Origin: Patescibacteria group bacterium
GTDB lineage: Bacteria; Patescibacteriota; Patescibacteriia; Buchananbacterales; UBA6539
Assembly: GCA_028688055.1 (NCBI GenBank)
Contig: JAQTYZ010000001.1
Coordinates: forward strand, 242,910-306,909
Direction: 5' to 3'
Length of the DNA: 64,000 nucleotides
In this document: positions 1,000 through 43,352 of the stretch, piece by piece
How positions within the stretch are numbered: the first letter of the stretch is position 1
Layout of the letters: the number at the start of each line of letters is the position of its first letter
Notes under the pieces: model-generated
What the model was told of the DNA's origin: nothing
Seen by the model: only the letters and a program-made list of their open reading frames with translations
The model's database searches: none
Made by a program: the position numbers and the translations under genes

Positions 1000-3900
1000 T
1001 TATTTATTTATAATCGCCAGAAAATTATTGCTAGTTTTTATCCAATCAAATTTGTTGGCCCAGTCCAAGCATTGAACCATCATTGAATGGCGTAGTTTTT
1101 CGTTGATTATCAGCTCGACCATTTTATCGGCAAATTCTTGGCGGTTGCCATATTCAACTAAGTAACCGGTATGAGGATTACTAACCGAGTCACGTAAGCC
1201 CGGAACGTCAGACGCAATCACCGGCGTGGCGCAGGCGTTGGCTTCAATCGTCGTGATACCCCAGCCTTCCATAAAAGACGGATTAACTAAAACCCAAGCT
1301 TTTTGCAGGAGGCTGATTTTTTGTTGCTCATTAACTTTTCCGGTAAAAGAAACTTTGTCTGACAAATTTAAATTGGTCATCAATTTTTTAAGCTTGTAAT
1401 CTTCCTCACCGCTACCGGCAATGACTAATTTAGCATTCGGAATTTTTTCACTAACAATCTTAAACGCTTCCAGCAAAACATTAATTGATTTATATGCTTT
1501 TAACCGACCGAGATATAAAATTTCCGGGTAAACGCTTTTTTGGCCCGGTTTTAAATCATTAAGATGAACACCTGGATGGACAATCTCAATGCCTGCTTGG
1601 CCAAGACCCAATTCCATTATTTCTTCTTTGCTTGAATTAGAAACGGTGATAAACGGAATTTTTCGGTAAACCAAAGGCATTAAATCTTTTTCCAAAAAAC
1701 TGGCAATTATGGCTAACGGCTTAGCAAGCGATTGACGAAAAACTTCTTGATGAACGTGATGCATTAGGCAATATATTTTTTTTCTTGAATAGAGCGGTGT
1801 AAAAAACGGAATGCCATTTTGACAATCAATAATAACATCATAGTGGCCGCGGAAGCGCAAGCTGTAATAAATAAACGCCCAGAAATAAACAAAATAAAAT
1901 CCACCGCGGCGAATAATTTGTACTCCGTCAACCATTTCATTTCTTAGACACGTTGTATCGTTGCCGCAAAAAATGGTGACATAATGTCCTTGCTTGAGCC
2001 ATTGCTTGGCCATCTCTTGAATATAGGCCTCAGCCCCGCCAGCGAATTTATGTTTAGTATCACGCCAATTAAAAATAAGAATTTTTTTGGTATTGGCATT
2101 GTCAGCAATTGTCGGCAGATTGGCAAATACGCCGAGGAAGTCAATCAGGTTATTTTTAATTGAACCATAGAGGTATTCATAACGATTAAGCCAGGAAATT
2201 GATATTAAGCTCAGCGCGCTAGTTATAAAAATAACGCCGGTTATTTGATAAATATTTTGATGATAGATGATAATACCCAGCGACATCATTACGGAAAAAA
2301 TTAAAGACGCGCCGGCGAAGAAATAATTTTTTTTCGCCAAGTGGTATGAGACATAAACATTGCTAAGGGTAAACATGGCAATCGCCGGCAAATAGATATT
2401 TAAGTATGGCAGCACCACCAATGACTTCGCACCAAAAATAAACGGTATCACCAATCGGCCGAGGGTTAACAAACCAATTGAGCCAAAGCCGACTAAAACG
2501 GCGGTTGCAGCTAAAATAATTCTTAGTTTGTTTTCGGAGTTTTTATTTAAGCCGACGTCGCGACTAACCAGAGTTGTGATGAAAATACTCGGTAGGGCCC
2601 CAAAAAAGAAAACCATTTTTCCAATCAGTGCGAGTAGGGAATACTCGCCAGCAATTTGCGGTGATAAATAATGCTTAACCAAGATGATGTCAAAACTCAA
2701 AAAGACGATGGCGGAAATACCGGCGAACAGTGAAGCGGTATAGAATTTTACCGGGAATTCGATGATGGCGGCTGGTTCCGCTTTAAGGTTTAGTCTATTT
2801 TTGACTAAATAGACTGAGGCTGTCGCCGAAACAATGATTGAAAATGGAATTGAGATAAAGGCAAATTGCCCCAACCCAGCATAGACCAAAACAAACGCCG
2901 CTATCAATTTGCTTACGGACTCGGTCAAAATAATAAGCGCAACGGTTTTAAAATAGAGCGTTCCATTAAGGTAACCTTGGTTAGCAGCAGCAATGACACC
3001 GCCAATTAAAATTGGGGTAAATAACAACAGCGAAAGATAATTTGGCAGCTTAAAAAATATGGTTAAAGTTGGAATAGCTAAGAGCCAAGCCGCCGAGATG
3101 ACAACGGTGGCAATCGCGCCGCGCTTAATAATTTTTTTTAAAAAATTAACACTAGCTTGTTCGCCGACCGCCGTCGACAAGTAAGCGGTTCGGTAATTGA
3201 CTGTTGATGATAAAGCGCCAATAAATATTCCGGCAATAAACCACAGCGTGTTAATGAAAGTAATAAGTCCCAGATTTTCAAAAGTCAAAGCGCGCCCAAG
3301 AAAAGCGTTATATAACAAGTTTAAAACATTTGAAATCATCATCGCCGCCAAAAGTATTCCGCCGCTGGTTAAATTATCCAACTTAATTTTGTAAGGTATC
3401 TTTTCAGCGATGATATTTTGTACTAGCTTAGACGTTGAAGCAAAAAATGACAGCGGTGAACGCTTGCGTAAGTTGGGGCCATTATTATCCCAGCTCCAAT
3501 AATAATCCACCGTTGAGTATGGTAGTCGATCAGTAATCGACTGAAGATCTTGAGGGGTAGTTGATTCTGCCGGCGCTGACGGGATAATGATTTTAAAAAT
3601 TAATAAGCCAAATGATTTTGCCTTAGCTTTGGCAGCTTGGATAAATTCATAGGCCGAATGTTTTTTAATATGCAAACCGTTGTCATCCCAAGACCATTGG
3701 TAGGAACTTAGTCGGTACGAAATTGAACGATACAAATTAGTAACATTATTTTCAATTTTTTGAGTTGTCGCATTACCTTGAGGAATAAACTCGCCAAAAA
3801 ACTGCCAGGTTTTTTGAGCTGTTTGGATTAAGGGTGCCAAAAAAAATTCGCTTGGTTTTATTTTTAGGTGTAAACCGTGATGAGTTTTTTCCCAATAGTG

Positions 3901-6000
3901 AGGCTTAACAATTAATTGGTATAAGGCAAAGTATGAAGCAATACTAGTCATCAGCCAATAAAATGGCACCAAATAAATATATTTCATCAGTGACCAATGA
4001 TTTTTTCTAGCGCAACCAATCATGTAGTAATATAAAAACAAAAAGTTACCGAAGACTAAAGAAGTAGCCGCCATAAAGAAAATTAGCGGTGGAAATAATT
4101 GTTCAATCGTCGGACCAACAATCGAGTATAAAGTAAAATAGGCAATGGTGGCGAGCCATAAAAAAGGATTAATCATGGCAAAGGCAATTTTGCCGCCGAC
4201 CACCAGTTGAAAAATAATTGCATGAACCCCGTTGTAACGAAACAGTTTTAGCGGATGGCGCATATGAACCAAGTAGGTCTGCATATAACCTTTCATCCAA
4301 CGCGATCGCTGACGGAGCCAATTTTTGGCGTGACTATTGGCCTCTTCAAGTGTCGTGGAATCAATAATGGCGGTTTTATAATTTTTTCTAAACAGTCTAA
4401 TGCCTAAATCGCAATCTTCGGTGACATTAAACGGATCCCAACCTTCGAGTTCAACTAAGCTGGCCGTTTTAAAATGATTACTGGTCCCACCGAGGGGAAT
4501 GTAAGTATTTAATGATTGCAAGCCCGTTAAGGTAACATCAAACCATAATGAATATTCGGCGGTAAAAAAGCGCGTCAGTAAATTCTGATGTGGGTTGTGA
4601 TAATTTAATTTTGCCTGTAGACAAGCCACGTCGGGCGCGACTCGCTGGAAGCCAAGATACGCTTTTTTAAGTTGAAGTGGGTCGGGAATATCTTCGGCAT
4701 CATAAATAACTAAATATTCCCCGCGGGCAAAACCTAGGCCATAGTTGCAGGCTTTTGGTTTGGTCTTGGGAAAAGAGTCGGGTACCACTATGGCCCTGAC
4801 GTAGTCGGGCAAATCAAGTTTGGTCGCCATTTCGACGGTGACCTGATCGTCTTCTTCCAATAGCAGCAAAACATCTAAACGATTTTTTGGCCAATCAATT
4901 TTTTTGATAGCTGACAAAAAACTAGGCAACACCTCAGCTTCTTTATACAGCGGACATAAAATTGAATAAACCGGCAAGCTGTTATCATCAAGTAATTTAA
5001 CGTCAGAATTTTTAATTTTAATTTCGGGTGAGTTTTTTAAACTTTTTGTAACAAGATAAAAATTAAATAACACGTCAATAAAATAAACGGCACTCATCAG
5101 GGCGGTAATGATAATGGCGGTGGTCATCGGATTATTGTATAAACCAGCGCTAATCAACAAGATAACGAAAAAAATAAATATTTTTTGCCAGCGGGCAAAA
5201 GTTTGAATGGCGGAAGTTTCTTGCTTCAAAGTGGTGTGAGTAATAAATCTTTTTTTTCTGAAGGCAACCCCGGCGCCAATCATTTTTAATTCAGGAATAA
5301 TTTCAAGAATCTGATTCGGCGTCAACTTGAGTTTAAGCGCGTTAAGGCCGATCTCGTAAGCAACTTTTAAAATTTTAACTTTCGATTGTCCACTTCGGCG
5401 ATTCTCAAACATAATGTCCACTTCGGCGATGCGATAGCCGTAGTGCCTTGATTTTAAAAGAAATTCTAGGTCAAAAGTCCAGGGTGTCGGAGAAACTTTA
5501 ACTTCGTTGAGAATTTTAGTTTTAAATATTTTAAATCCGGATTGAACATCGCAACCCAAGCCGTGTAACCATTTGGCGAATAGTAAATTAAAAACACGGC
5601 TCGCGAGCCGTCGTTTAAAGGATAATTTACTTTCGTTTCGTTTGGCGACCACAATGTCAAAACCCTTTTCAATTTTTTTTAACATTTGTGGCAAGGCTTC
5701 GGGCGGATATTGCAAGTCGCCGTCGATAAAGCCAATCAGATTATATTTAGCCTTGGCAAAACCTTCAAGTAGCGATTGCGCCTTACCCCGTTTACCTTTT
5801 TTTTCATACAGTGAAATCGGAAAAAAATTAGCAAGCTCTCTAACTTTGTCTCTGGTACCATCAGTTGAATGGTCATCAATAAAAATAAGCTCATAGTCTG
5901 CCGTGCCAGTCAGAGCTTGGTCGATGCGATTGATTAACTCAGCAATATTTCCCGCTTCATTTAGAACAGGGATAATGACTGATAGTCTGTTACGATTCAT
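1000..6000 (-). CDS. 1666-aa multidomain glycan-assembly fusion protein: GT2 (DPM1-like) + GT2 processive synthase-like (QxxRW) + Wzx-like polysaccharide flippase membrane domain + GT4
   Basis: Uninterrupted 5-kb ORF in AT-rich DNA. N-terminal SVIIPVLNE...FIDDHSTDGT (GT2, dolichol-P-mannose synthase-like). Second GT2 with DAEDIP and RQRSRWMKG (QxxRW processive synthase motif). W-rich duplicated linker (SYQWSWDDNGLHIKKHS / DYYWSWDNNGPNLRKRS). About 12-TM Wzx/MOP-like region. C-terminal GT4 (EGWGITTIEANACATPVIASDVPG). Confidence 0.85.
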   Translation of the reverse strand: MNRNRLSVIIPVLNEAGNIAELINRIDQALTGTADYELIFIDDHSTDGTRDKVRELANFFPISLYEKKGKRGKAQSLLEGFAKAKYNLIGFIDGDLQYPPEALPQMLKKIEKGFDIVVAKRNESKLSFKRRLASRVFNLLFAKWLHGLGCDVQSGFKIFKTKILNEVKVSPTPWTFDLEFLLKSRHYGYRIAEVDIMFENRRSGQSKVKILKVAYEIGLNALKLKLTPNQILEIIPELKMIGAGVAFRKKRFITHTTLKQETSAIQTFARWQKIFIFFVILLISAGLYNNPMTTAIIITALMSAVYFIDVLFNFYLVTKSLKNSPEIKIKNSDVKLLDDNSLPVYSILCPLYKEAEVLPSFLSAIKKIDWPKNRLDVLLLLEEDDQVTVEMATKLDLPDYVRAIVVPDSFPKTKPKACNYGLGFARGEYLVIYDAEDIPDPLQLKKAYLGFQRVAPDVACLQAKLNYHNPHQNLLTRFFTAEYSLWFDVTLTGLQSLNTYIPLGGTSNHFKTASLVELEGWDPFNVTEDCDLGIRLFRKNYKTAIIDSTTLEEANSHAKNWLRQRSRWMKGYMQTYLVHMRHPLKLFRYNGVHAIIFQLVVGGKIAFAMINPFLWLATIAYFTLYSIVGPTIEQLFPPLIFFMAATSLVFGNFLFLYYYMIGCARKNHWSLMKYIYLVPFYWLMTSIASYFALYQLIVKPHYWEKTHHGLHLKIKPSEFFLAPLIQTAQKTWQFFGEFIPQGNATTQKIENNVTNLYRSISYRLSSYQWSWDDNGLHIKKHSAYEFIQAAKAKAKSFGLLIFKIIIPSAPAESTTPQDLQSITDRLPYSTVDYYWSWDNNGPNLRKRSPLSFFASTSKLVQNIIAEKIPYKIKLDNLTSGGILLAAMMISNVLNLLYNAFLGRALTFENLGLITFINTLWFIAGIFIGALSSTVNYRTAYLSTAVGEQASVNFLKKIIKRGAIATVVISAAWLLAIPTLTIFFKLPNYLSLLLFTPILIGGVIAAANQGYLNGTLYFKTVALIILTESVSKLIAAFVLVYAGLGQFAFISIPFSIIVSATASVYLVKNRLNLKAEPAAIIEFPVKFYTASLFAGISAIVFLSFDIILVKHYLSPQIAGEYSLLALIGKMVFFFGALPSIFITTLVSRDVGLNKNSENKLRIILAATAVLVGFGSIGLLTLGRLVIPFIFGAKSLVVLPYLNIYLPAIAMFTLSNVYVSYHLAKKNYFFAGASLIFSVMMSLGIIIYHQNIYQITGVIFITSALSLISISWLNRYEYLYGSIKNNLIDFLGVFANLPTIADNANTKKILIFNWRDTKHKFAGGAEAYIQEMAKQWLKQGHYVTIFCGNDTTCLRNEMVDGVQIIRRGGFYFVYFWAFIYYSLRFRGHYDVIIDCQNGIPFFTPLYSRKKIYCLMHHVHQEVFRQSLAKPLAIIASFLEKDLMPLVYRKIPFITVSNSSKEEIMELGLGQAGIEIVHPGVHLNDLKPGQKSVYPEILYLGRLKAYKSINVLLEAFKIVSEKIPNAKLVIAGSGEEDYKLKKLMTNLNLSDKVSFTGKVNEQQKISLLQKAWVLVNPSFMEGWGITTIEANACATPVIASDVPGLRDSVSNPHTGYLVEYGNRQEFADKMVELIINEKLRHSMMVQCLDWANKFDWIKTSNNFLAIINK

Positions 6001-6389
6001 TATTATTTAGCAAAAAAACGTATGAATAAATCTACTGATTTTAAGTAAGTAAGCCTATAATTTTTACATTAATATTGCAGTTTTGTCAAGTATTTCAATA
6101 TAACAATTTGTATGACGAAGTATGATTTATTATTAGAATAAATTTTGCTAATTTTAGCAAATTTGCAAAAAAGTGGTTTTTGTGACATTGCTGTTGAAAA
6201 TTTTCTCTCGCTATGCTAAGGTTTCAGGACGGCTAAAATTAGCCAGATCAATGCAAGGACCGCCTCTTGCGGCTCCTTTAACAATAAACTCAACCGGAAA
6301 ATATATAGGAGGGAAGTGGAAGTAAAACGCCTTTTGTCGAGTACGAAACGATGAACCGGGCGAATGCCCAAAACTAGGAGTGTCCAAAG

Positions 6390-7781
6390 ATGAGAATCGT
6401 TCGTAGTGCCACCTTGCTTGCCTTGGTTATCGGCCTGGCAGGTTGCCCGCCGGTCCACCCGATATTCATTTGGGGTGCCGGCCTCTTCGCGACCGACGGC
6501 GGTTGCGAAAACAACTTTTCCGTTTTCGTTACGAACAACAATGCGGCCGAGGCGAGTTTCCAGCTTTGGCAGCAAAACAGCCAAGGTCAGTGGCTCCCGA
6601 CTCAGGACCAGCATAAGGTCCAGTTCGGTCCGGTCGAAAACGTGACACTGTATCGTGTCGACGCGACGTACCAGGGCCAGGACGTGTTCTACTGGAATGG
6701 TGCGTACATTTATTCGCCGTATGGCTATCCTTACCATTACAAGTCAAACGACAAGGACGCCAATGGCGAGAAAGTGTTGCCGGGCTATTACCCCTGGAAT
6801 TACGTGCCTTGGGGCTGGGTGCAGTCGCACGGCGTGTACGGCCATACGACCGAGACAGTTGAAGTCTCGCACATGGATATCATCCATAGTGAAGGTTTCG
6901 ACCTCTACTCGGTTTTTCCCAATCTATCGTCCAGCCCGTACCGAGTCAAAATCACTGGCGTCGATACGGACGGCAAGGCTTTTGTGGCCGCGACCACCGA
7001 TGTTTATTCGGTGGTCGACGATTGCACCGCCAATGGTGGCCCCTGTGGAACACCGAGTCTGCGCATCGACCGTACGCCGCTGTTTGGCGATAACAACGGT
7101 GTCGTCAGCGGCACTGTCTGTCTCGAAAACCCAGTCGGTTGGACCGTGGGCGTTTATGCTCACGTTACCAACGTGTGGCCGGATCCGTACAATCTCATCG
7201 GCGTCGTGCCAATCAACGCGAGTGGTAATTGGACGCAGCAAGGCGTCCAGACTGCGGACGACAAGTTCGCGATCGAATTCTTCGCGTCACTGGCGCCAAC
7301 TGGTACCGTTTACCCCTCGACTTCGCAGGGCATTCCCCAAATTGCGGGGCAGGTTGATTCCGATGTGAAACAACGGACACCGTTTGTGGTGTTTGTCGGC
7401 AACCCCTCTGTCTCGGGTGGCGCTGAGTGCCAGACGAATTATTTCCCAGCGCTATTCGGCGCGATTGCGTACGTCCAACAGGCGAACGGTAACGTTCACC
7501 AGCAGCCGATGTACAGTCCGCCGTCCGCGAGCACGTTGGTATCATTGATACCGGATGCGGGTGGGGCTTTCTGCACCTTCCACATCGCCCTTAACCAGGT
7601 CGCCGCCGGGTCAAGCTACGACCCCGGACAAGCGGCCACGGTCAAGGTGCAGGTCATCCCTCAGGGATACAATTACGTCAAAACGGAGACGGGCATAACG
7701 GTTGACAACCTCAACCTCAACCTGACTCCAGAGGGAGTGGCCGGACGAGGAGCCGATGTCGCCGCCACCTTAGCCCCGTAG
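6390..7781 (+). CDS. Secreted lipoprotein of unknown function, encoded in a high-GC island (atypical codon usage)
   Basis: AGGAG RBS 9 nt upstream. Signal peptide with lipobox LALVIGLAG-C. Trp/Tyr/Gly-rich mature part. GC and GC3 far above flanks. The overlapping ORFs in other frames (6216-6737-, 6655-7368+ etc.) are high-GC artefacts. Confidence 0.7.
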   Translation: MRIVRSATLLALVIGLAGCPPVHPIFIWGAGLFATDGGCENNFSVFVTNNNAAEASFQLWQQNSQGQWLPTQDQHKVQFGPVENVTLYRVDATYQGQDVFYWNGAYIYSPYGYPYHYKSNDKDANGEKVLPGYYPWNYVPWGWVQSHGVYGHTTETVEVSHMDIIHSEGFDLYSVFPNLSSSPYRVKITGVDTDGKAFVAATTDVYSVVDDCTANGGPCGTPSLRIDRTPLFGDNNGVVSGTVCLENPVGWTVGVYAHVTNVWPDPYNLIGVVPINASGNWTQQGVQTADDKFAIEFFASLAPTGTVYPSTSQGIPQIAGQVDSDVKQRTPFVVFVGNPSVSGGAECQTNYFPALFGAIAYVQQANGNVHQQPMYSPPSASTLVSLIPDAGGAFCTFHIALNQVAAGSSYDPGQAATVKVQVIPQGYNYVKTETGITVDNLNLNLTPEGVAGRGADVAATLAP

Positions 7782-7906
7782 CTTTTCGGGAAGAGTAACA
7801 CCGCTCGTCGGGAGCTTTGACTGTGGTACGCTGCAGTTAGGGTTCTCGGCGAGTCTTTTTTTACTTGATTTTAATCTAAAAAAAGCATATAATATTATAG
7901 TAATAT

Positions 7907-9601
7907 TTGGTTATGAAAAAACTTTTTAAATCTAAAATTCTGTGGTCGGTGGTCCTAATTCTAATTATCGGCGGCGTTTTTGCTTATCGATACTTTAATA
8001 AGCCTAAAACGGTTGAATATGTCACCGAGGATGTTAGGCGCGGTAATCTTACCCAAACCATTGATGCAACCGGTAAAGTTAAATCAGCGACCGAAATTGA
8101 CTTAAACTTTAAAAATGCCGGTCGACTGGCAACGGTAAATGTTAAAGTTGGCGATCAAATTAAGGAAGGCCAAATTTTAGCTCAGATTAAAGCCACTGAT
8201 TTGAAAATTAATGTTAATAAAGCGCAGGCTAACTTAAATGAAGCCCTGGCCAATTTAGCCAAGGTCGAAACCGGCGCCACTAAACAAGACATTGCTGTTT
8301 ATCAGGCTGCCGTTGAAAAGGCAAGCAGTGATTTAGACAGTGCCCAATCCGATTTATCGAATATAACCGAAACCTATACTCAGGCTGTGGTTAACCAAAG
8401 GCAAAATATTTTGGTTGATATTAATTCGACTTTGACTAAGGCAAATATTTCTTTACAAACTCTTTATGACACGATTTATTATAAAGGTGATGCCAATAAT
8501 TTAGTTACTTCAAATCAATCGTTATATCAACAAACGGTTAACGGATATTCATTGTCAATTAACAAACTTGATGATGCCGAACTTAGTTATAATATTGCCA
8601 AACTTAACCCAACTGATGATAAAATTAGTGATGCGATTGCAAAAAGTTTAACGGCGCTCGGTCAGGTGTCACAAACCTTAAATGATGGGGGAGCCTTGTT
8701 GGATTATGTAATTATTACTTCATCACTAACTCAGGCCAACTTAGATAGTTTAAAGTTGAATATAAATTCCGAGCGGGTAACAACTAACACGAGTCTTAAT
8801 ACGATCGAGACCGGTAAGCAAGCGTTAAACGATGCGAGTATCACTTTGCAAACAAAAGTGGACTCGGCTAAAAATGCGGTTACCGCGGCTGAAAAAAATT
8901 TAGCTAAGGCTAATGCCGATTTGTCGCTCAAATCAGCACCGGCCAGACCGGAGGATTTGACACTTTATCAGGCCCAGGTTGCGCGCGCGCACGGCGACTT
9001 GCAATTAGCTTTGGACCAATATAGCGACACAATTATTAAAGCCCCGATTGACGGAGTGATTACCGAAGTTAATTTCAGTGTTGGTGAACAAACCAATTTG
9101 AGTCAGCCTGCCATTGTGATGTTGGCCAATGAGGCTTTTGAAATTGAAGTAAATGTTCCGGAGTCTGATATTGTTAAAATAACCAGGGGTGATAATGCTG
9201 AAATCACTTTAGACGCATTTACCGATGCCGATATTTTTGACGGCGTCATCACCACCATTGATCCGGCTCAAACCGAAATTCAAGATGTTATTTATTATAA
9301 AGTTACGGTTGGTTTTCGTCCGGAGCAACCAGCTAAGGTTAAGAATTTAGTGGAAAGAATTAAGCCGGGGATGACTGCTAATTTAACGGTGAAAACCGGT
9401 GAGATCAATGACATTTTGATTATTCCAGCGCGAGCCGTCAAGGAGGAAAATGGCCAAAAATATGTTGAAATACTTGCTAACGGCACACCACAGCGAATAA
9501 ATATTACCATCGGACTTCGTGGCGACGATGGTTTAGTTGAAGTTACGTCTGGTTTAAGTGAAGGTCAAAAAGTCATTACCTTTGTTCGCAATCAGGGTTA
9601 G
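7907..9601 (+). CDS. HlyD-family periplasmic adaptor / membrane fusion protein with long coiled coil
   Basis: N-terminal TM, extended alpha-helical coiled-coil region, C-terminal beta-barrel/lipoyl-like segment (IKAPIDGVITEVNFSVGEQ), typical of efflux/secretion MFPs. Confidence 0.6.
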   Translation: MVMKKLFKSKILWSVVLILIIGGVFAYRYFNKPKTVEYVTEDVRRGNLTQTIDATGKVKSATEIDLNFKNAGRLATVNVKVGDQIKEGQILAQIKATDLKINVNKAQANLNEALANLAKVETGATKQDIAVYQAAVEKASSDLDSAQSDLSNITETYTQAVVNQRQNILVDINSTLTKANISLQTLYDTIYYKGDANNLVTSNQSLYQQTVNGYSLSINKLDDAELSYNIAKLNPTDDKISDAIAKSLTALGQVSQTLNDGGALLDYVIITSSLTQANLDSLKLNINSERVTTNTSLNTIETGKQALNDASITLQTKVDSAKNAVTAAEKNLAKANADLSLKSAPARPEDLTLYQAQVARAHGDLQLALDQYSDTIIKAPIDGVITEVNFSVGEQTNLSQPAIVMLANEAFEIEVNVPESDIVKITRGDNAEITLDAFTDADIFDGVITTIDPAQTEIQDVIYYKVTVGFRPEQPAKVKNLVERIKPGMTANLTVKTGEINDILIIPARAVKEENGQKYVEILANGTPQRINITIGLRGDDGLVEVTSGLSEGQKVITFVRNQG

Positions 9602-9604
9602 TTT

Positions 9605-10717
9605 ATGTTTCCAAAAAAATATTTAGTTTATCTTAAGAATTTTGATTGGATCTTATTTGGATCCTTTTTTTTGCTAATTTGTTTCGGGCTGGCGGCAATT
9701 TATAGTATTACCATTAGTTCGGACCAACCAGATTTTTCTAATTTTAAAAAACAAATTACTTTTACCATTATTGGTTTAGTCATTGTTTCAATTTTAACAA
9801 TGATTGATTATCATTATTGGCATGATTTCAGCTTAGTTGTTTACGGTTTGGTTTTTGTGCCATTAATATTAGTTTTGTTTTTAGGCCGAACCATTAGCGG
9901 CACGACTGGCTGGTTTTCTTTTTTTGGCATTAATTTTCAACCGGTTGAAATTGCCAAAATTTCGTTGATCATTTGTTTGGCGTGGTTTTTTAGCCATGTT
10001 GGCGAAAACATCAAACAATTGAAAAATTTTATTATTAGTGCCATCATTGTTGGCTCATATTTTGGGCTAGTTATTTTACAGCCAGATTTTGGATCAGGAA
10101 TGATTCTAATTGGCATTTGGTTTTTGATGATTATCTTTGCCGGCGTTAATAAGCGTCACTTATTGGTGTCCGGAATATTATTGGCAATCGTCGCGGTCAT
10201 AGCTTGGTTTTTTCTTTTCCATGATTATCAACAAGCGAGAATTATGACGTTTTTTAATCCGCAAGCTGATCCTTATGGTCGCGGTTATCACGTTAGACAA
10301 GCCGTTACCGCGGTCGGTGCCGGGGGATTATTTGGTCGCGGTTTAGGCTTTGGTTCACAAAGCCAGCTCAAGTTTATACCTGCTAGCGAAACCGACTTTA
10401 TTTTTGCGGTCATCGCTGAAGAACTTGGTTTTTTTGGGGTAAGCTTAGTTTTATTTTTCTGGGCGATTATATTTTATCGGCTAATTAAAATAGCAAAACA
10501 GATGAAAGACTCCTTTGCCCTCTACTTTGTGTTAGGCGTCTCGGCGCTGTTTTTTTGTCAGCTAATGGTTAATATTGGAATGAATATCGGCTTAGTGCCA
10601 GTAACGGGAATTTCGTTGCCCTTTTTGAGCTACGGCGGAAGTTTTTTGGTGGTCAGTATGGCGGCAATTGGTATGGTTGAAGGAATGATCGTAAAAAATC
10701 GCCTAGCCAGTAGTTAA
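9605..10717 (+). CDS. SEDS-family peptidoglycan polymerase FtsW/RodA
   Basis: Polytopic membrane protein with SEDS hallmarks QPDFGS... and ISLPFLSYGGS. Confidence 0.85.
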   Translation: MFPKKYLVYLKNFDWILFGSFFLLICFGLAAIYSITISSDQPDFSNFKKQITFTIIGLVIVSILTMIDYHYWHDFSLVVYGLVFVPLILVLFLGRTISGTTGWFSFFGINFQPVEIAKISLIICLAWFFSHVGENIKQLKNFIISAIIVGSYFGLVILQPDFGSGMILIGIWFLMIIFAGVNKRHLLVSGILLAIVAVIAWFFLFHDYQQARIMTFFNPQADPYGRGYHVRQAVTAVGAGGLFGRGLGFGSQSQLKFIPASETDFIFAVIAEELGFFGVSLVLFFWAIIFYRLIKIAKQMKDSFALYFVLGVSALFFCQLMVNIGMNIGLVPVTGISLPFLSYGGSFLVVSMAAIGMVEGMIVKNRLASS

Positions 10718-10766
10718 GATATTACTTGACTTATTCTAGAGTTTTAGCTATATTATTTAGGTATTT

Positions 10767-11102
10767 ATGGAGGATAAACTTTTTAATTTCTTAAGCGACA
10801 GCACAACGCTGATAACTCACTGTCCGGTGTGTAATTTGCGCTATGATCCGCTTGCGGCCAGGATTCTTGAAGAATCAAGTGCTAATCACTTGGTTCACAT
10901 TACTTGCCGATATTGCCAAGCGTCGGTCTTAGCTTTAATTATTACGAGCCAAATGGGCGTTAGCTCAATTGGGTTAATTACTGACCTAAACAGCGATGAG
11001 GTAGCAGACTTTAGAAAGAGCGGCAATATTACAACTGATGATGTCATTGAGATCCATCAGTTTTTAAACCGACAGCGCGCTCTGATAGATTATCTGAACT
11101 AG
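10767..11102 (+). CDS. Hypothetical small protein with CxxC...CxxC zinc-ribbon
   Basis: HCPVCN...CRYCQ motifs; no recognisable family. Confidence 0.4.
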   Translation: MEDKLFNFLSDSTTLITHCPVCNLRYDPLAARILEESSANHLVHITCRYCQASVLALIITSQMGVSSIGLITDLNSDEVADFRKSGNITTDDVIEIHQFLNRQRALIDYLN

Positions 11103-22152: not shown

Positions 22153-23364
22153 TTGCTGAACATTATGTTTAATAAAAAAAATCAGCAGAATAAAGATACA
22201 ATCAGTTTTTGGGCTAAATTTAGCCTAATTATGATTGTCCTACAAGCAATTGGTGGGGTATTAATATTTTTAATCAATCCGAAGCGCTGGCTGCGTTTTT
22301 TTAAAAAACAAAAAAAGGAGATAAATGATCTTACGGATGGTAAAGAAGGGACAAAGGATTTTCTTCTAAATTCTAGTGTATTGCTAAAGGATTTGTTCAT
22401 TCCGCATTTAGGCAATGGTCATAAACCTAAAATTTTGAGGCCAAAGAGCCTACTGACATTTGCTGTTTCGGCAATAATTATTAAAGCGGCGGTAACTGGT
22501 TTTCTGTTTTTTACTTATCCGACGCCAGCCGAATTATCAGCCATAATGACCAGCAATATGATCGCGCTGATTAATGACGCGAGAAATGATGCCGGTGCTG
22601 AGCCGTTACGAGAAAATTTGATGTTAGATGAATACGCAAAACAAAAGGGGACAGACATGATCAGTCGAGGTTATTTTGCTCATGATACGCCGGATGGAAA
22701 AAGACCATGGGAGTGGATTGATCGAACGGATTATGATTATGTTTATGCTGGTGAAAATCTGGCGATGGACTTTATCTCGGCCGAGGTTGTTCAGGACGCT
22801 TTTATGAAAAGCCCTGGCCATCGACGTAATATCTTAAATCCTAAGTATAAAGATGTTGGAATTGCGGTTTTGAATGGTAAATTAGGTGGTCATGAAACCA
22901 CTTTATTAGTCGAGTTTTTTGGTACGGAACGAAAAGATTTGTCTTCGCTGGTGGCAGTTAATAAAGCTCCATCAGCTAAGACAACCGTTACTCAACCCAA
23001 TCCTAGTACCCCCGTCCAACCAATGGTAATTTCCAATACCAACGCCAGTAATCCAAATGTCAATAATAATTTAGTACCCGAAAATGTTCAGTCGGCAAAC
23101 ACGGAGGCTCTTATTGTCGTTGCACCCAACCAATCTTCAAATTCGGACTTAATTAATTTTGTTATTGAATACTCAAATATTTTTTTCATCGCCTTTCTTA
23201 TCTTTATGTTGATATCGCTGATACTAAATATTGTTATTAAATTTAGAATTCAGCATCCGGCGTTGATTTTACAAAGCGTGGTGGTTATCGCCCTAATGGC
23301 GGCCATGGTTTTGGTCAAGTTCCATTTTGCCGAAACAATCTCACCCCATTTGCTCATTTTATAG
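22153..23364 (+). CDS. CAP/SCP (PR-1-like) domain protein with N- and C-terminal TM segments
   Basis: CAP-domain pattern: LINDARNDAGAEPL..., YFAHDTPDG, GENLAMDF, MKSPGHRRNILNPKYKDVGIAV. Confidence 0.7.
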   Translation: MLNIMFNKKNQQNKDTISFWAKFSLIMIVLQAIGGVLIFLINPKRWLRFFKKQKKEINDLTDGKEGTKDFLLNSSVLLKDLFIPHLGNGHKPKILRPKSLLTFAVSAIIIKAAVTGFLFFTYPTPAELSAIMTSNMIALINDARNDAGAEPLRENLMLDEYAKQKGTDMISRGYFAHDTPDGKRPWEWIDRTDYDYVYAGENLAMDFISAEVVQDAFMKSPGHRRNILNPKYKDVGIAVLNGKLGGHETTLLVEFFGTERKDLSSLVAVNKAPSAKTTVTQPNPSTPVQPMVISNTNASNPNVNNNLVPENVQSANTEALIVVAPNQSSNSDLINFVIEYSNIFFIAFLIFMLISLILNIVIKFRIQHPALILQSVVVIALMAAMVLVKFHFAETISPHLLIL

Positions 23365-31836: not shown

Positions 31837-31838
31837 TA

Positions 31839-32206
31839 CCTAAGTAAACCGATAAGCCGAATTCTGTATCCCGTTGCCGGGATGATGATCATCTATCTAG
31901 GTCCAATATTGCTAATGGACTCAAGCTGCCTACCTAATTTGGCATTGCACCTGGCAGGAGTTTACCACACCGACTGTTACCAGTCAGTCATGCGTGGGCT
32001 CTTACCCCACGATTTCAACCTTACCGCTCGCAGAAGCGAGGTTGGCGGTGTATTTTCTGTTGCACTTGCCCTGAGCTTGGCAAAAAAACAGAAGTCTTAA
32101 GCACTTCTATCATTTTGTTACTCTCGGCTCCCGTTAGGAGTTGCCGTTTTGTGGTGTTCGGACTTTCCTCCCGAAATTAATCGGGCGATCATCTAGTTTA
32201 CTTAGG
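31839..32206 (-). ncRNA. rnpB: RNase P RNA, bacterial type A
   Basis: Reverse strand contains the universally conserved blocks GGAGGAAAGTCCGAAC (P4 5' strand), GTGCAACAGAAAA, GGTAAGGTTGAAATCGTGGGGTAAGAGCCCAC, GGTAACAGTCGGTG...GTAAACTCC, ACAGAATTCGGCTTATCGGTTTAC (P4 3' strand). P1 pairing is CCTAAGTAAAC / GTTTACTTAGG at the ends. Length about 368 nt. Confidence 0.9.
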
Positions 32207-42503: not shown

Positions 42504-42587
42504 CTTAACATAGGGCTCAAATAGCAAAAAGTATCATAGAAATATGGTATTTTTTGTTTTATTTAAGCCAAATTTTATTGATTTTTA

Positions 42588-42616
42588 TTGACAAATTTAT
42601 AATTTTATGCTATTAT
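42588..42616 (+). promoter_or_regulatory. Consensus sigma70-type promoter driving the high-GC island 2 gene
   Basis: TTGACA - 17 nt - TATTAT, about 115 nt upstream of the ATG. Confidence 0.55.
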
Positions 42617-42733
42617 ACAAATGTTGACAATGGATTAGTCTGATGGCGAGGAAGGTTAGATCTTCCAGTCCTGGTTTGTCTAGGATCGTAAGCTGTCAGG
42701 CCCAACCGTGCCTACGGGCATCGGAGAAGAAGA

Positions 42734-43285
42734 ATGCGCAAGATCTTAGCAGCAATGGCAGTTTTGTTGAGTATGTCCCTGTACAACCAGGTCGGCACCG
42801 TCAGTGCGGCGGACGGAATGACGAACTCGGCATGGGACAAGCCTCTCACGATCAACAACACGGATGTCTACTGGGTGGAACGGGACGTGAATGACGTTGT
42901 TCATTCAACCGTCACCAACGAGCCCAGGTGGTTCTCAAAGGAGTGCGGCCTCTTGGTTATTCCAACTCGGGTCGTCGAAGACCGCGTCTACTTTGCCAAG
43001 TTTGGCAAGGAGTGGTATATCCACAGGAGTGACCTGGCCGATAACCCCAGGGCGACTGTTCAGTGGCTGGAATCCTACTCGATTGGTGGTACAGCCATTC
43101 TCGGAGTTACGTCACTGTGGGACGCGATCGAAATCGCGGCCAGCAGCAGCAGCTACCCCGAAGTGACGGCGAAGATCATGAACCAGTTGGCCGCGGAACG
43201 GTTCTATGACCCCTGCAAGTACGCTGACCTCAATCGGCGGGATATCTTCAATACCCTAAAGGAAGCCCAGCTTCCCGTTCGGTGA
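42734..43285 (+). CDS. Secreted protein of unknown function encoded in high-GC island 2
   Basis: GGAGAAGAAGAATG RBS; signal peptide MRKILAAMAVLLSMSLYNQVGTVSA-AD; GC-rich codons; overlapping frames are artefacts. Confidence 0.7.
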   Translation: MRKILAAMAVLLSMSLYNQVGTVSAADGMTNSAWDKPLTINNTDVYWVERDVNDVVHSTVTNEPRWFSKECGLLVIPTRVVEDRVYFAKFGKEWYIHRSDLADNPRATVQWLESYSIGGTAILGVTSLWDAIEIAASSSSYPEVTAKIMNQLAAERFYDPCKYADLNRRDIFNTLKEAQLPVR

Positions 43286-43304
43286 AGTCCCCGCGAAGTC
43301 TTAT

Positions 43305-43352
43305 GGCCCCAGGAGTTTTGCGAAAGCGTCTCTCTGGGGCCGCTTTCTTTTT
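43305..43352 (+). terminator. Rho-independent terminator at the end of high-GC island 2
   Basis: GGCCCCAG ... CTGGGGCC stem followed by GCTTTCTTTTT. Confidence 0.6.

Follow-up and report, generated by a model that had tools for sequence, protein, structure and literature searches.

Small genomic islets of atypical composition, or 'morons', are judged within the Lawrence-Ochman amelioration framework. In AT-rich genomes, GC-rich blocks with a promoter and terminator of their own are also a classic sign of structured RNA, and Klein, Misulovin and Eddy are said to have used GC-content screens for structured RNA genes in 2002. Local GC richness has also been described in the vls system of Borrelia, which has approximately 49% G+C against approximately 28.6% for the chromosome and was read by its authors as being under strong selection for high G+C (PMC11499132). 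Finally, a 2026 preprint reported that a cultured Patescibacterium takes up RNA from its host, that the known hosts are GC-rich and that the parasite's codon usage complements that of the host (doi 10.64898/2026.06.21.733656). Here we describe island 2, a GC-rich unit at positions 42588-43352 of a 64,000-nucleotide (nt) stretch of DNA from a Patescibacteria group bacterium (contig JAQTYZ010000001.1; the whole stretch is referred to as the window), together with a companion, island 1. We propose, with a probability of roughly 0.65, that island 2 is a Patescibacteria-restricted, fast-evolving and relocatable cassette for an exported binding protein, in which GC richness is old and actively maintained.

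By its predicted anatomy, island 2 is a genuine single-gene cassette, made up of an extended -10 promoter, a structured leader, a Shine-Dalgarno sequence, the gene for a Sec-exported protein and a terminator. The features are as follows.

Positions 42552 to 42575, plus strand: box TTTTGTTTTATTTAAGCCAAAT, AT-rich and upstream of the promoter; a pseudo-palindrome with the pattern TTTTG..TAA-N-TTAGCCAAAA.
Positions 42588 to 42616, plus strand: predicted sigma-70-type promoter TTGACA-17-TATTAT with a TG extension (TATGCTATTAT), matching 11 of 12 consensus positions.
Positions 42623 to 42733, plus strand: predicted 5' leader of approximately 111 nt, 52% GC, counted from the presumed transcription start.
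Positions 42734 to 43285, plus strand: gene for a putatively exported protein of 183 amino acids (aa), with a signal peptide of approximately 25 aa, a predicted SH3b-like β-domain (residues ~40-105) and a predicted helical C-terminal domain (~109-179).
Positions 43304 to 43352, plus strand: predicted intrinsic terminator, with the stem GGCCCCAGG...CTGGGGCC at 43304-43342, followed by GCTTTCTTTTT.

The -35 and -10 hexamers at 17-nt spacing, and the GC-rich hairpin followed by a T-tract (TTTCTTTTT), fit a sigma-70 promoter/intrinsic terminator unit, the ends of the transcript being predictions. The promoter, the GC-rich leader and the strong terminator had all been proposed in an earlier note on this DNA and were borne out, the leader measuring approximately 111 rather than 115 nt. 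The promoter region is very AT-rich (13-20% GC). The leader has a minimum free energy of -40.9 kcal/mol (z = -2.1) and holds two tandem hairpins (42650-42666 and 42668-42686), both of which were recovered in a four-sequence consensus fold with compensatory changes, i.e., on both sides, in five of 13 pairs. A Shine-Dalgarno sequence, GGAG, is found at 42723-42726, 7 nt upstream of the ATG, and the 3' untranslated region (UTR) folds at -26 kcal/mol (z = -2.6).

According to the earlier note, the island had roughly 55% GC in a genome of approximately 37%. A high-GC island is indeed present, with 55.0% GC over the predicted transcript (42623-43345); the interval originally named, 42588-43352, has 52.8%, and the rest of the window has 38.6% once both island transcripts are excluded (39.2% with them). 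The GC profile rises from approximately 0.30 to 0.54-0.58 over ~42640-43340 and falls to approximately 0.31 thereafter. Two-segment change-points were placed at 42638, i.e., 15 nt past the predicted transcription start, and at 43343, which coincides with the last base of the terminator stem, in agreement with the sharp boundaries noted previously. GC contents at the first, second and third codon positions of the island-2 open reading frame (ORF) were 0.52, 0.42 and 0.72, respectively. To place the last of these values (GC3), we used the window's 45 non-overlapping ORFs with a length of 100 aa or more, of which 43 remain when the two islands are set aside; these 43 have a mean GC3 of 0.357 (standard deviation, sd, 0.035; maximum 0.446), giving island 2 a z-score of 10.4. 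The neighbouring tgt and RibD_C/DHFR-like genes have GC3 values of 0.39 and 0.30. A chimera made by one assembler is excluded because the Logan assembly of run SRR22315507, the product of an independent assembler, was 100% identical over 17.8 kb, including both junctions.

Searching 1.84 billion representative proteins with HMMER yielded just three true relatives of the island-2 protein (P0002, P0003 and P0004); a fourth, P0006, came from a profile search of 5.8 billion clusters. The earlier note had suggested looking for homologues in high-GC taxa, but these four were all that was retrieved; each resides in a GC-rich island (52-58% GC, GC3 0.64-0.72) of a Patescibacteria-like contig, and neither collection contained a homologue in a GC-rich genomic context. 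In contigs L082, L083 and L084 the flanks have 31-46% GC and the neighbouring genes GC3 values of 0.16-0.44. No relatives were found in viral contigs when both island proteins were used as queries against IMG/VR, and a scan of JGI metagenomes for the conserved terminator pattern gave nothing beyond the JGI copy of L083. Among the sequences searched, the family is confined to Patescibacteria-like contigs. Protein identities within it are mostly 25-45%, reaching 55% between the two-domain members P0002 and P0006.

The family members occupy four insertion contexts, namely after tgt in the window, after a peptidyl-prolyl isomerase (PPIase) gene in L083 and L084, after a tRNA gene in L085 and, in L082, after the gene 5' of that for P0003, which from inspection by eye we take to be folD. 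Even so, the islands have regulatory DNA in common. This includes an AT-rich promoter, ATTGACAAAAT..TATGCTATAAT, which in the window and in L084, 5' of the P0004 gene, is 78% identical over 68 nt and the architecture of which is found also in L082 and L085; an upstream box, TTAGCCAAAATT; the two leader hairpins; and a GACCCCAGG..CYGGGGTCGTTT terminator, to the L082, L083 and L084 versions of which the island-2 terminator is homologous. Because promoter, hairpin and terminator DNA is conserved despite the divergence of the proteins, the combination of AT-rich promoter and GC-rich transcript is ancestral to the family. The box TTTTGTTTTATTTAAGCCAAAT marks the left limit of the sequence common to the cassettes; it is kept in L083, L084 and L085 and inverted in L082, and may be an operator or UP-like element. 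A second box, TTGACAATGG, lies among the bases with which the transcript is predicted to begin (42626-42635), repeats the -35 sequence and is kept in three of four cassettes (the window, L084 at ~1094-1103 and L085 at ~147-156); its role could be that of a regulator site or of a 5'-end element. Also in L082, a purC-purE-oxidoreductase-purH-purB block (2713-9011, minus strand) with GC3 values of 0.44-0.57, beside genes of 0.16-0.26, looks like a separate, genuine transfer into an AT-rich genome.

These observations bear directly on the claim of the earlier note that island 2 was acquired recently from a high-GC host or neighbour and has yet to ameliorate. Much about the locus invites that reading. 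Like a transferred islet, island 2 consists of one gene, equipped with a promoter and terminator of its own and set between housekeeping genes, with atypical codons, an orphan, putatively exported product and a variable position; its GC3 is 10 sd above the genome and its boundaries are sharp. The gene is also missing at tgt in the nearest reference genome, a species-representative Patescibacteria metagenome-assembled genome in which tgt is 70% identical at the aa level and the gene order of the tgt region is conserved. There, two other small genes of ordinary GC fill the space from tgt to a conserved membrane protein of 122 aa, and island 2 is absent. The purine block of L082, which looks like genuine transfer, speaks for it too, as do the GC-rich known hosts and the host-RNA uptake of a cultured parasite (doi 10.64898/2026.06.21.733656). 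However, unlike a transferred islet, island 2 has a composition that lasts after synonymous randomization and a conserved AT-rich promoter of native type, and no donor lineage, phage context or mobility gene was found for it. Its diverged, synonymously saturated homologues hold the same GC content and the same AT-rich promoter, and no homologue occurs in a GC-rich setting. Neither integrase nor transposase genes were found at island 2, which lies between tgt and the RibD_C/DHFR gene; there is no tRNA gene within 10 kb and no convincing flanking direct repeat at that place. A scan of 80 other genomes revealed no comparable GC-rich islands near tgt outside this clade.

The decisive comparison came from the second island, which the earlier note had correctly placed at approximately 6200-7860. 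Its features are given below.

Positions 6194 to 7865, plus strand: companion island 1, a lipoprotein cassette (GC3 0.68; z = 9.4 against the same 43 ORFs).
Positions 6194 to 6222, plus strand: the island's own predicted promoter, TTGAAA-17-TAAGGT.
Positions 6390 to 7781, plus strand: gene for a 463-aa lipoprotein with the lipobox LAGC, preceded by a leader of approximately 160 nt.
Positions 7803 to 7865: terminator with a 24-bp stem.

The 3' UTR of island 1, including the terminator, folds at -39 kcal/mol, and its protein is deposited in GenBank as MDD2807157.1 (PHW95_01370), "hypothetical protein [Patescibacteria group bacterium]". Syntenic orthologues, with aa identities of 63% and 49%, were found in L087 and L088, respectively, with the lipobox kept in all three and the gene invariably located between a 1666-aa glycosyltransferase and a membrane-fusion protein. 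For the proteins on either side, identities are 82% and 75% in L087 and 60% in L088, so that the ranking of island-1 identities (L087 above L088) mirrors that of the flanks. GC3 is 0.68, 0.675 and 0.70 in the three lineages, against 0.38-0.50 in the flanks. At four-fold degenerate sites of conserved residues, the window and L087 agree in 33% of cases, when composition alone predicts 26-29%, and island and flanks behave alike. A leader hairpin reads CCGC..GCGG in the window and, with a compensatory change, CCAC..GTGG in L087. Under a simple resampling model, the four-fold sites correspond to approximately 1.2 relaxation times per lineage, such that approximately 0.3 of an initial GC excess should survive; the four-fold site data imply that the ancestor would have needed a GC content at these sites above 100% to leave 0.70 against flanks of approximately 0.50. 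Because synonymous sites are near-saturated and GC3 is nevertheless unchanged, the GC richness of island 1 would be maintained rather than inherited from a recent import. Syntenic relatives of the same composition were the very finding that the earlier note had named as speaking against recent transfer. With these and the paralogous GC-rich copies at hand, a recent transfer from a high-GC donor is close to refuted, and we regard it as highly unlikely.

At both islands (42552-42575 and 6142-6171), an AT-rich, pseudo-palindromic box with the pattern TTTTG(C/G)YTAA-N-TTAGC(C)AAA lies 5' of the -35 hexamer, which hints at common regulation. An operator shared by both islands was tried as a candidate and set aside: the motif count in the window was within chance and not statistically significant, and the third strong match, at 22208 and the best apart from those at the islands, falls inside a coding region. 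The 1666-aa glycosyltransferase next to island 1 (1000-6000, minus strand, divergent from it) is a fusion that combines a pair of GT2 domains, a membrane region and one GT4 domain, and its L087 counterpart has 82% aa identity.

The contigs also revealed how the cassette may come and go. L083 is collinear with window positions 7913-10999 (66% nucleotide identity), and in it a member of the island-2 family stands where the window has island 1, 5' of the 564-aa membrane-fusion protein. L083 and L084 have flanks that are 83% and 91% identical and middles that are unrelated, which is a cassette replacement at one locus. Two of the five known copies are damaged: that of L084 has an in-frame TAG (1630-1645), and that of L083 lacks the promoter, leader and first ~36 codons (209-290), its homology beginning straight after the TTAGCCAAAATT box so that promoter, leader and signal peptide are deleted. 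In L085, the P0006 gene adjoins the 3' end of a tRNA gene and is bracketed by a 68-nt direct repeat (52-119 and 1479-1546; 75% identical), which contains a palindrome of 20 bp, AATGTTCCAYGTGGAACATT, that is perfect in the copy lying upstream; the repeat may be the trace of a site-specific insertion or a regulator site. Further along (1609-2328, minus strand), L085 has a second, convergent GC-rich gene of 239 aa (GC3 0.61) with no signal peptide and no family match. We propose that the cassette would be old in the lineage, evolve fast and at times be inactivated, moved or swapped between related genomes, and cassettes may be mobile among related Patescibacteria.

The same observations could be explained if an unsampled GC-rich reservoir (for instance a plasmid, a phage or the genomes of the hosts) kept supplying the cassettes anew, in which case amelioration would never be seen. 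The different loci, the swap between L083 and L084, the L085 copy beside a tRNA gene within direct repeats and the turnover implied by two decaying copies out of five are all in keeping with this, as is the strand symmetry of the GC enrichment described below, which is expected after residence on a GC-rich replicon. We consider it unlikely, however, as no copy was found in 15 billion proteins, in IMG/VR viral contigs or in the JGI metagenome terminator scan, the AT-rich promoter moves together with the cassette, as does the upstream box, and the island-1 identities follow those of the flanks, as for vertical descent. Conserved flanks with exchanged middles are, in turn, what might be produced by GC-biased gene conversion at a hot spot of recombination for which the conserved promoter and terminator served as anchors, and this process would account equally for strand symmetry and for an effect on UTRs as well as codons. 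Against it, the promoter-region anchors have only 13-20% GC, the middles are too diverged for heteroduplex formation, the window contains no paralogous donor copies, and we know of no precedent in bacteria for biased conversion strong enough to shift GC3 by 35 points. We thus hold gene conversion to be quite improbable.

Under the cassette reading, a high GC3 (~0.7 versus ~0.36) would be a long-standing property kept on these transcription units by some force, and the islands have several characteristics in common that constrain what this force might be. GC richness is common to three unrelated genes, i.e., those of the island-2 family, the island-1 lipoprotein and the third gene in L085. In all seven islands examined GC richness stops exactly at the terminator stem, and in four of the seven it starts within 25 nt of the predicted transcription start. 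Relative synonymous codon usage correlates among islands from different genomes (mutual r = 0.3-0.8) and is uncorrelated with that of host genes (r ~0). Amino-acid usage is also altered, with a K/R ratio of approximately 1 versus 2 and a reduction in the residues FYMINK. GC skew is 0.00-0.10 (+0.06 in island 2), i.e., the enrichment is strand-symmetric, and the runs in island 2 are balanced (nine G-runs versus 11 C-runs). This sets the islands apart from Borrelia vls, which they resemble as a surface-protein system that is locally GC-rich in an AT-rich bacterium: vls has a coding-strand GC skew of approximately 0.52, G-runs and arrays of promoter-less silent cassettes (PMC11499132), whereas the islands have little skew and no silent copies, tblastn having detected no further copy of the island-2 gene elsewhere in the window.

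Selection at the RNA level, on mRNA stability or expression level and aided by the hairpins at both ends, would fit both the coincidence of the GC limits with the transcript ends and the conservation of the UTR hairpins, and is our leading, if tentative, candidate for the maintaining force. Two other candidates were rejected. Translational selection was discarded as unlikely: among ORFs of 100 aa or more, none besides the islands goes above a GC3 of 0.446, and GC is ordinary around the gene for ribosomal protein L21. Transcription-associated mutagenesis was discarded on account of the strand symmetry.

A number of observations weigh against the reading that we prefer. Those that concern RNA-level selection are the leaders of merely intermediate GC in three of the seven islands, the retention of GC3 ~0.70 by the promoter-less L083 and nonsense-containing L084 copies, and the lack of any clear excess of mRNA structure, the folds of islands (z = -1.1 to -5.3 against synonymous shuffles) overlapping with those of host genes (-0.2 to -4.0). 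Others concern age and maintenance more broadly. The family has five known members, several of which come from short contigs, and L085, at 2.5 kb, is too short for its genomic background to be judged. Island 2 is without a syntenic orthologue, and this particular copy may have arrived fairly recently from another Patescibacterium. Lastly, when synonymous changes were polarized with L088 as outgroup, changes from G or C to A or T outnumbered the reverse by 31 to 14, a ratio equal to the artefact that parsimony should yield at 70% GC when the outgroup is saturated.

A more speculative version of maintenance would make the GC-rich, host-like coding style an adaptation to the parasite-host RNA economy of Patescibacteria, with selection rather than ancestry keeping GC3 at approximately 0.7. 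In one form of this idea, the units would have begun as host transcripts, GC-rich and captured behind a native promoter; in another, host-like codons would make the translation of attachment proteins depend on contact with a GC-rich host, for instance by way of tRNAs or RNA imported from it. The preprint makes GC-rich, host-like genes intriguing but does not show a host origin for the cassettes (doi 10.64898/2026.06.21.733656), and we regard the idea as a long shot.

The product of island 2 is deposited in GenBank as a "hypothetical protein" of 176 aa with a later start (MDD2807182.1; PHW95_01505). Three start codons compete, i.e., 42734 (183 aa), 42755 (GenBank, 176 aa) and 42773 (Logan, 170 aa), and the Shine-Dalgarno GGAG, the MRK n-region and the N-termini of the homologues favour the first. 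The ORF is a real protein gene, because its GC has a period of three, the signal peptide is kept, motifs are conserved and synonymous sites are randomized among homologues; in addition, an ORF of 183 codons arose in only 0.3-0.9% of shuffles of the island (P = 0.003-0.009), and the protein yields a foldable model. The motifs conserved across the family are YYW, PTR, KFGKEW, DPR..T..W and PEVT. As the earlier note had seen, the N-terminus resembles a Sec signal peptide, with (by inspection) the MRK n-region, the h-region ILAAMAVLLSMSL and a ..VSA|AD cleavage site; the corresponding sites of P0003 and P0006 read AVA|ED and AMA|VG. The 183-aa protein is accordingly put forward as a probable Sec-exported substrate of signal peptidase I.

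Given that the island shares a GC-rich block between an AT-rich promoter and a terminator, as well as UTR hairpins, with the GC-rich RNA genes of AT-rich genomes, it might be supposed that it encodes a structured non-coding RNA, conserved in the hairpins of its leader and 3' UTR, the ORF being a by-product of low stop frequency. Unlike such genes, however, the body of island 2 is protein-coding and belongs to no Rfam family. No match fell in the island, either when the whole window was scanned at the gathering threshold or when the island was scanned at E ≤ 1, the lone signal being a sub-threshold rimP-leader match in an AT-rich spacer, and the periodic GC, protein conservation over randomized synonymous sites, signal peptide and predicted fold all argue for translation. 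An assembly chimera would be the other trivial explanation; to the second assembly with its identical junctions can be added equivalent mosaics in five other samples. Either of these is scarcely credible.

The earlier note had found no recognizable domain in the protein, and this holds for sequence comparison, in that Pfam, NCBIfam, PHROGs, and PDB sequence and profile searches returned no match; SH3b profiles (SH3_3, SH3_5 and similar) gave none in Pfam or NCBIfam at E ≤ 0.1, and the family profile none in PDB. It does not hold for the predicted structure. An AlphaFold2 model from a five-row alignment had a predicted local distance difference test (pLDDT) score of 51 and was too poor to use, but splitting the two-domain homologues into separate rows (seven rows in total) raised the pLDDT to 75, with a predicted template-modelling (pTM) score of 0.70. 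With medium confidence, the model comprises a small β-barrel domain of the bacterial SH3-like type and a helical domain. A search of BFVD viral structures with this model gave nothing convincing. The predicted β-domain is similar in fold to the SH3b cell-wall-binding domains of lysostaphin, endolysin binding domains, the NlpC/P60 N-terminal domain and the TagH C-terminal domain, and from this resemblance the protein is most likely a binder of a cell-wall or host-surface glycopolymer. Unlike those proteins, it has no SH3b profile match and no catalytic partner domain, and it carries a helical domain of approximately 70 residues with no structural matches, in the same model of pLDDT 75. As modelled, this exported, SH3b-like and Patescibacteria-restricted family appears to be new, and its members are candidates for binding of the cell wall or host surface in episymbiotic bacteria.

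It is routine to take sharp compositional islands for recent horizontal gene transfer, a rule that fails here: two unrelated genes for putatively exported proteins, and a third gene in a related contig, hold a 35-point excess of GC3 despite synonymous turnover. If it is selection or a biased process that maintains this excess, the islands offer a contrast within one genome on what opposes AT-biased mutation in bacteria, with the same cell, replication and repair, and with neighbouring genes just 100 nt away.

Elsewhere in the window, five tRNA genes were located (14488, 53568, 61692, 61768 and 63556). The anticodons include the C-starting Gln-CTG, Thr-CGT and Gly-CCC, and the genome is therefore able to decode G-ending codons directly. 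The window also contains a bacterial RNase P RNA of class A (31837-32204, minus strand), which scored 225 bits.

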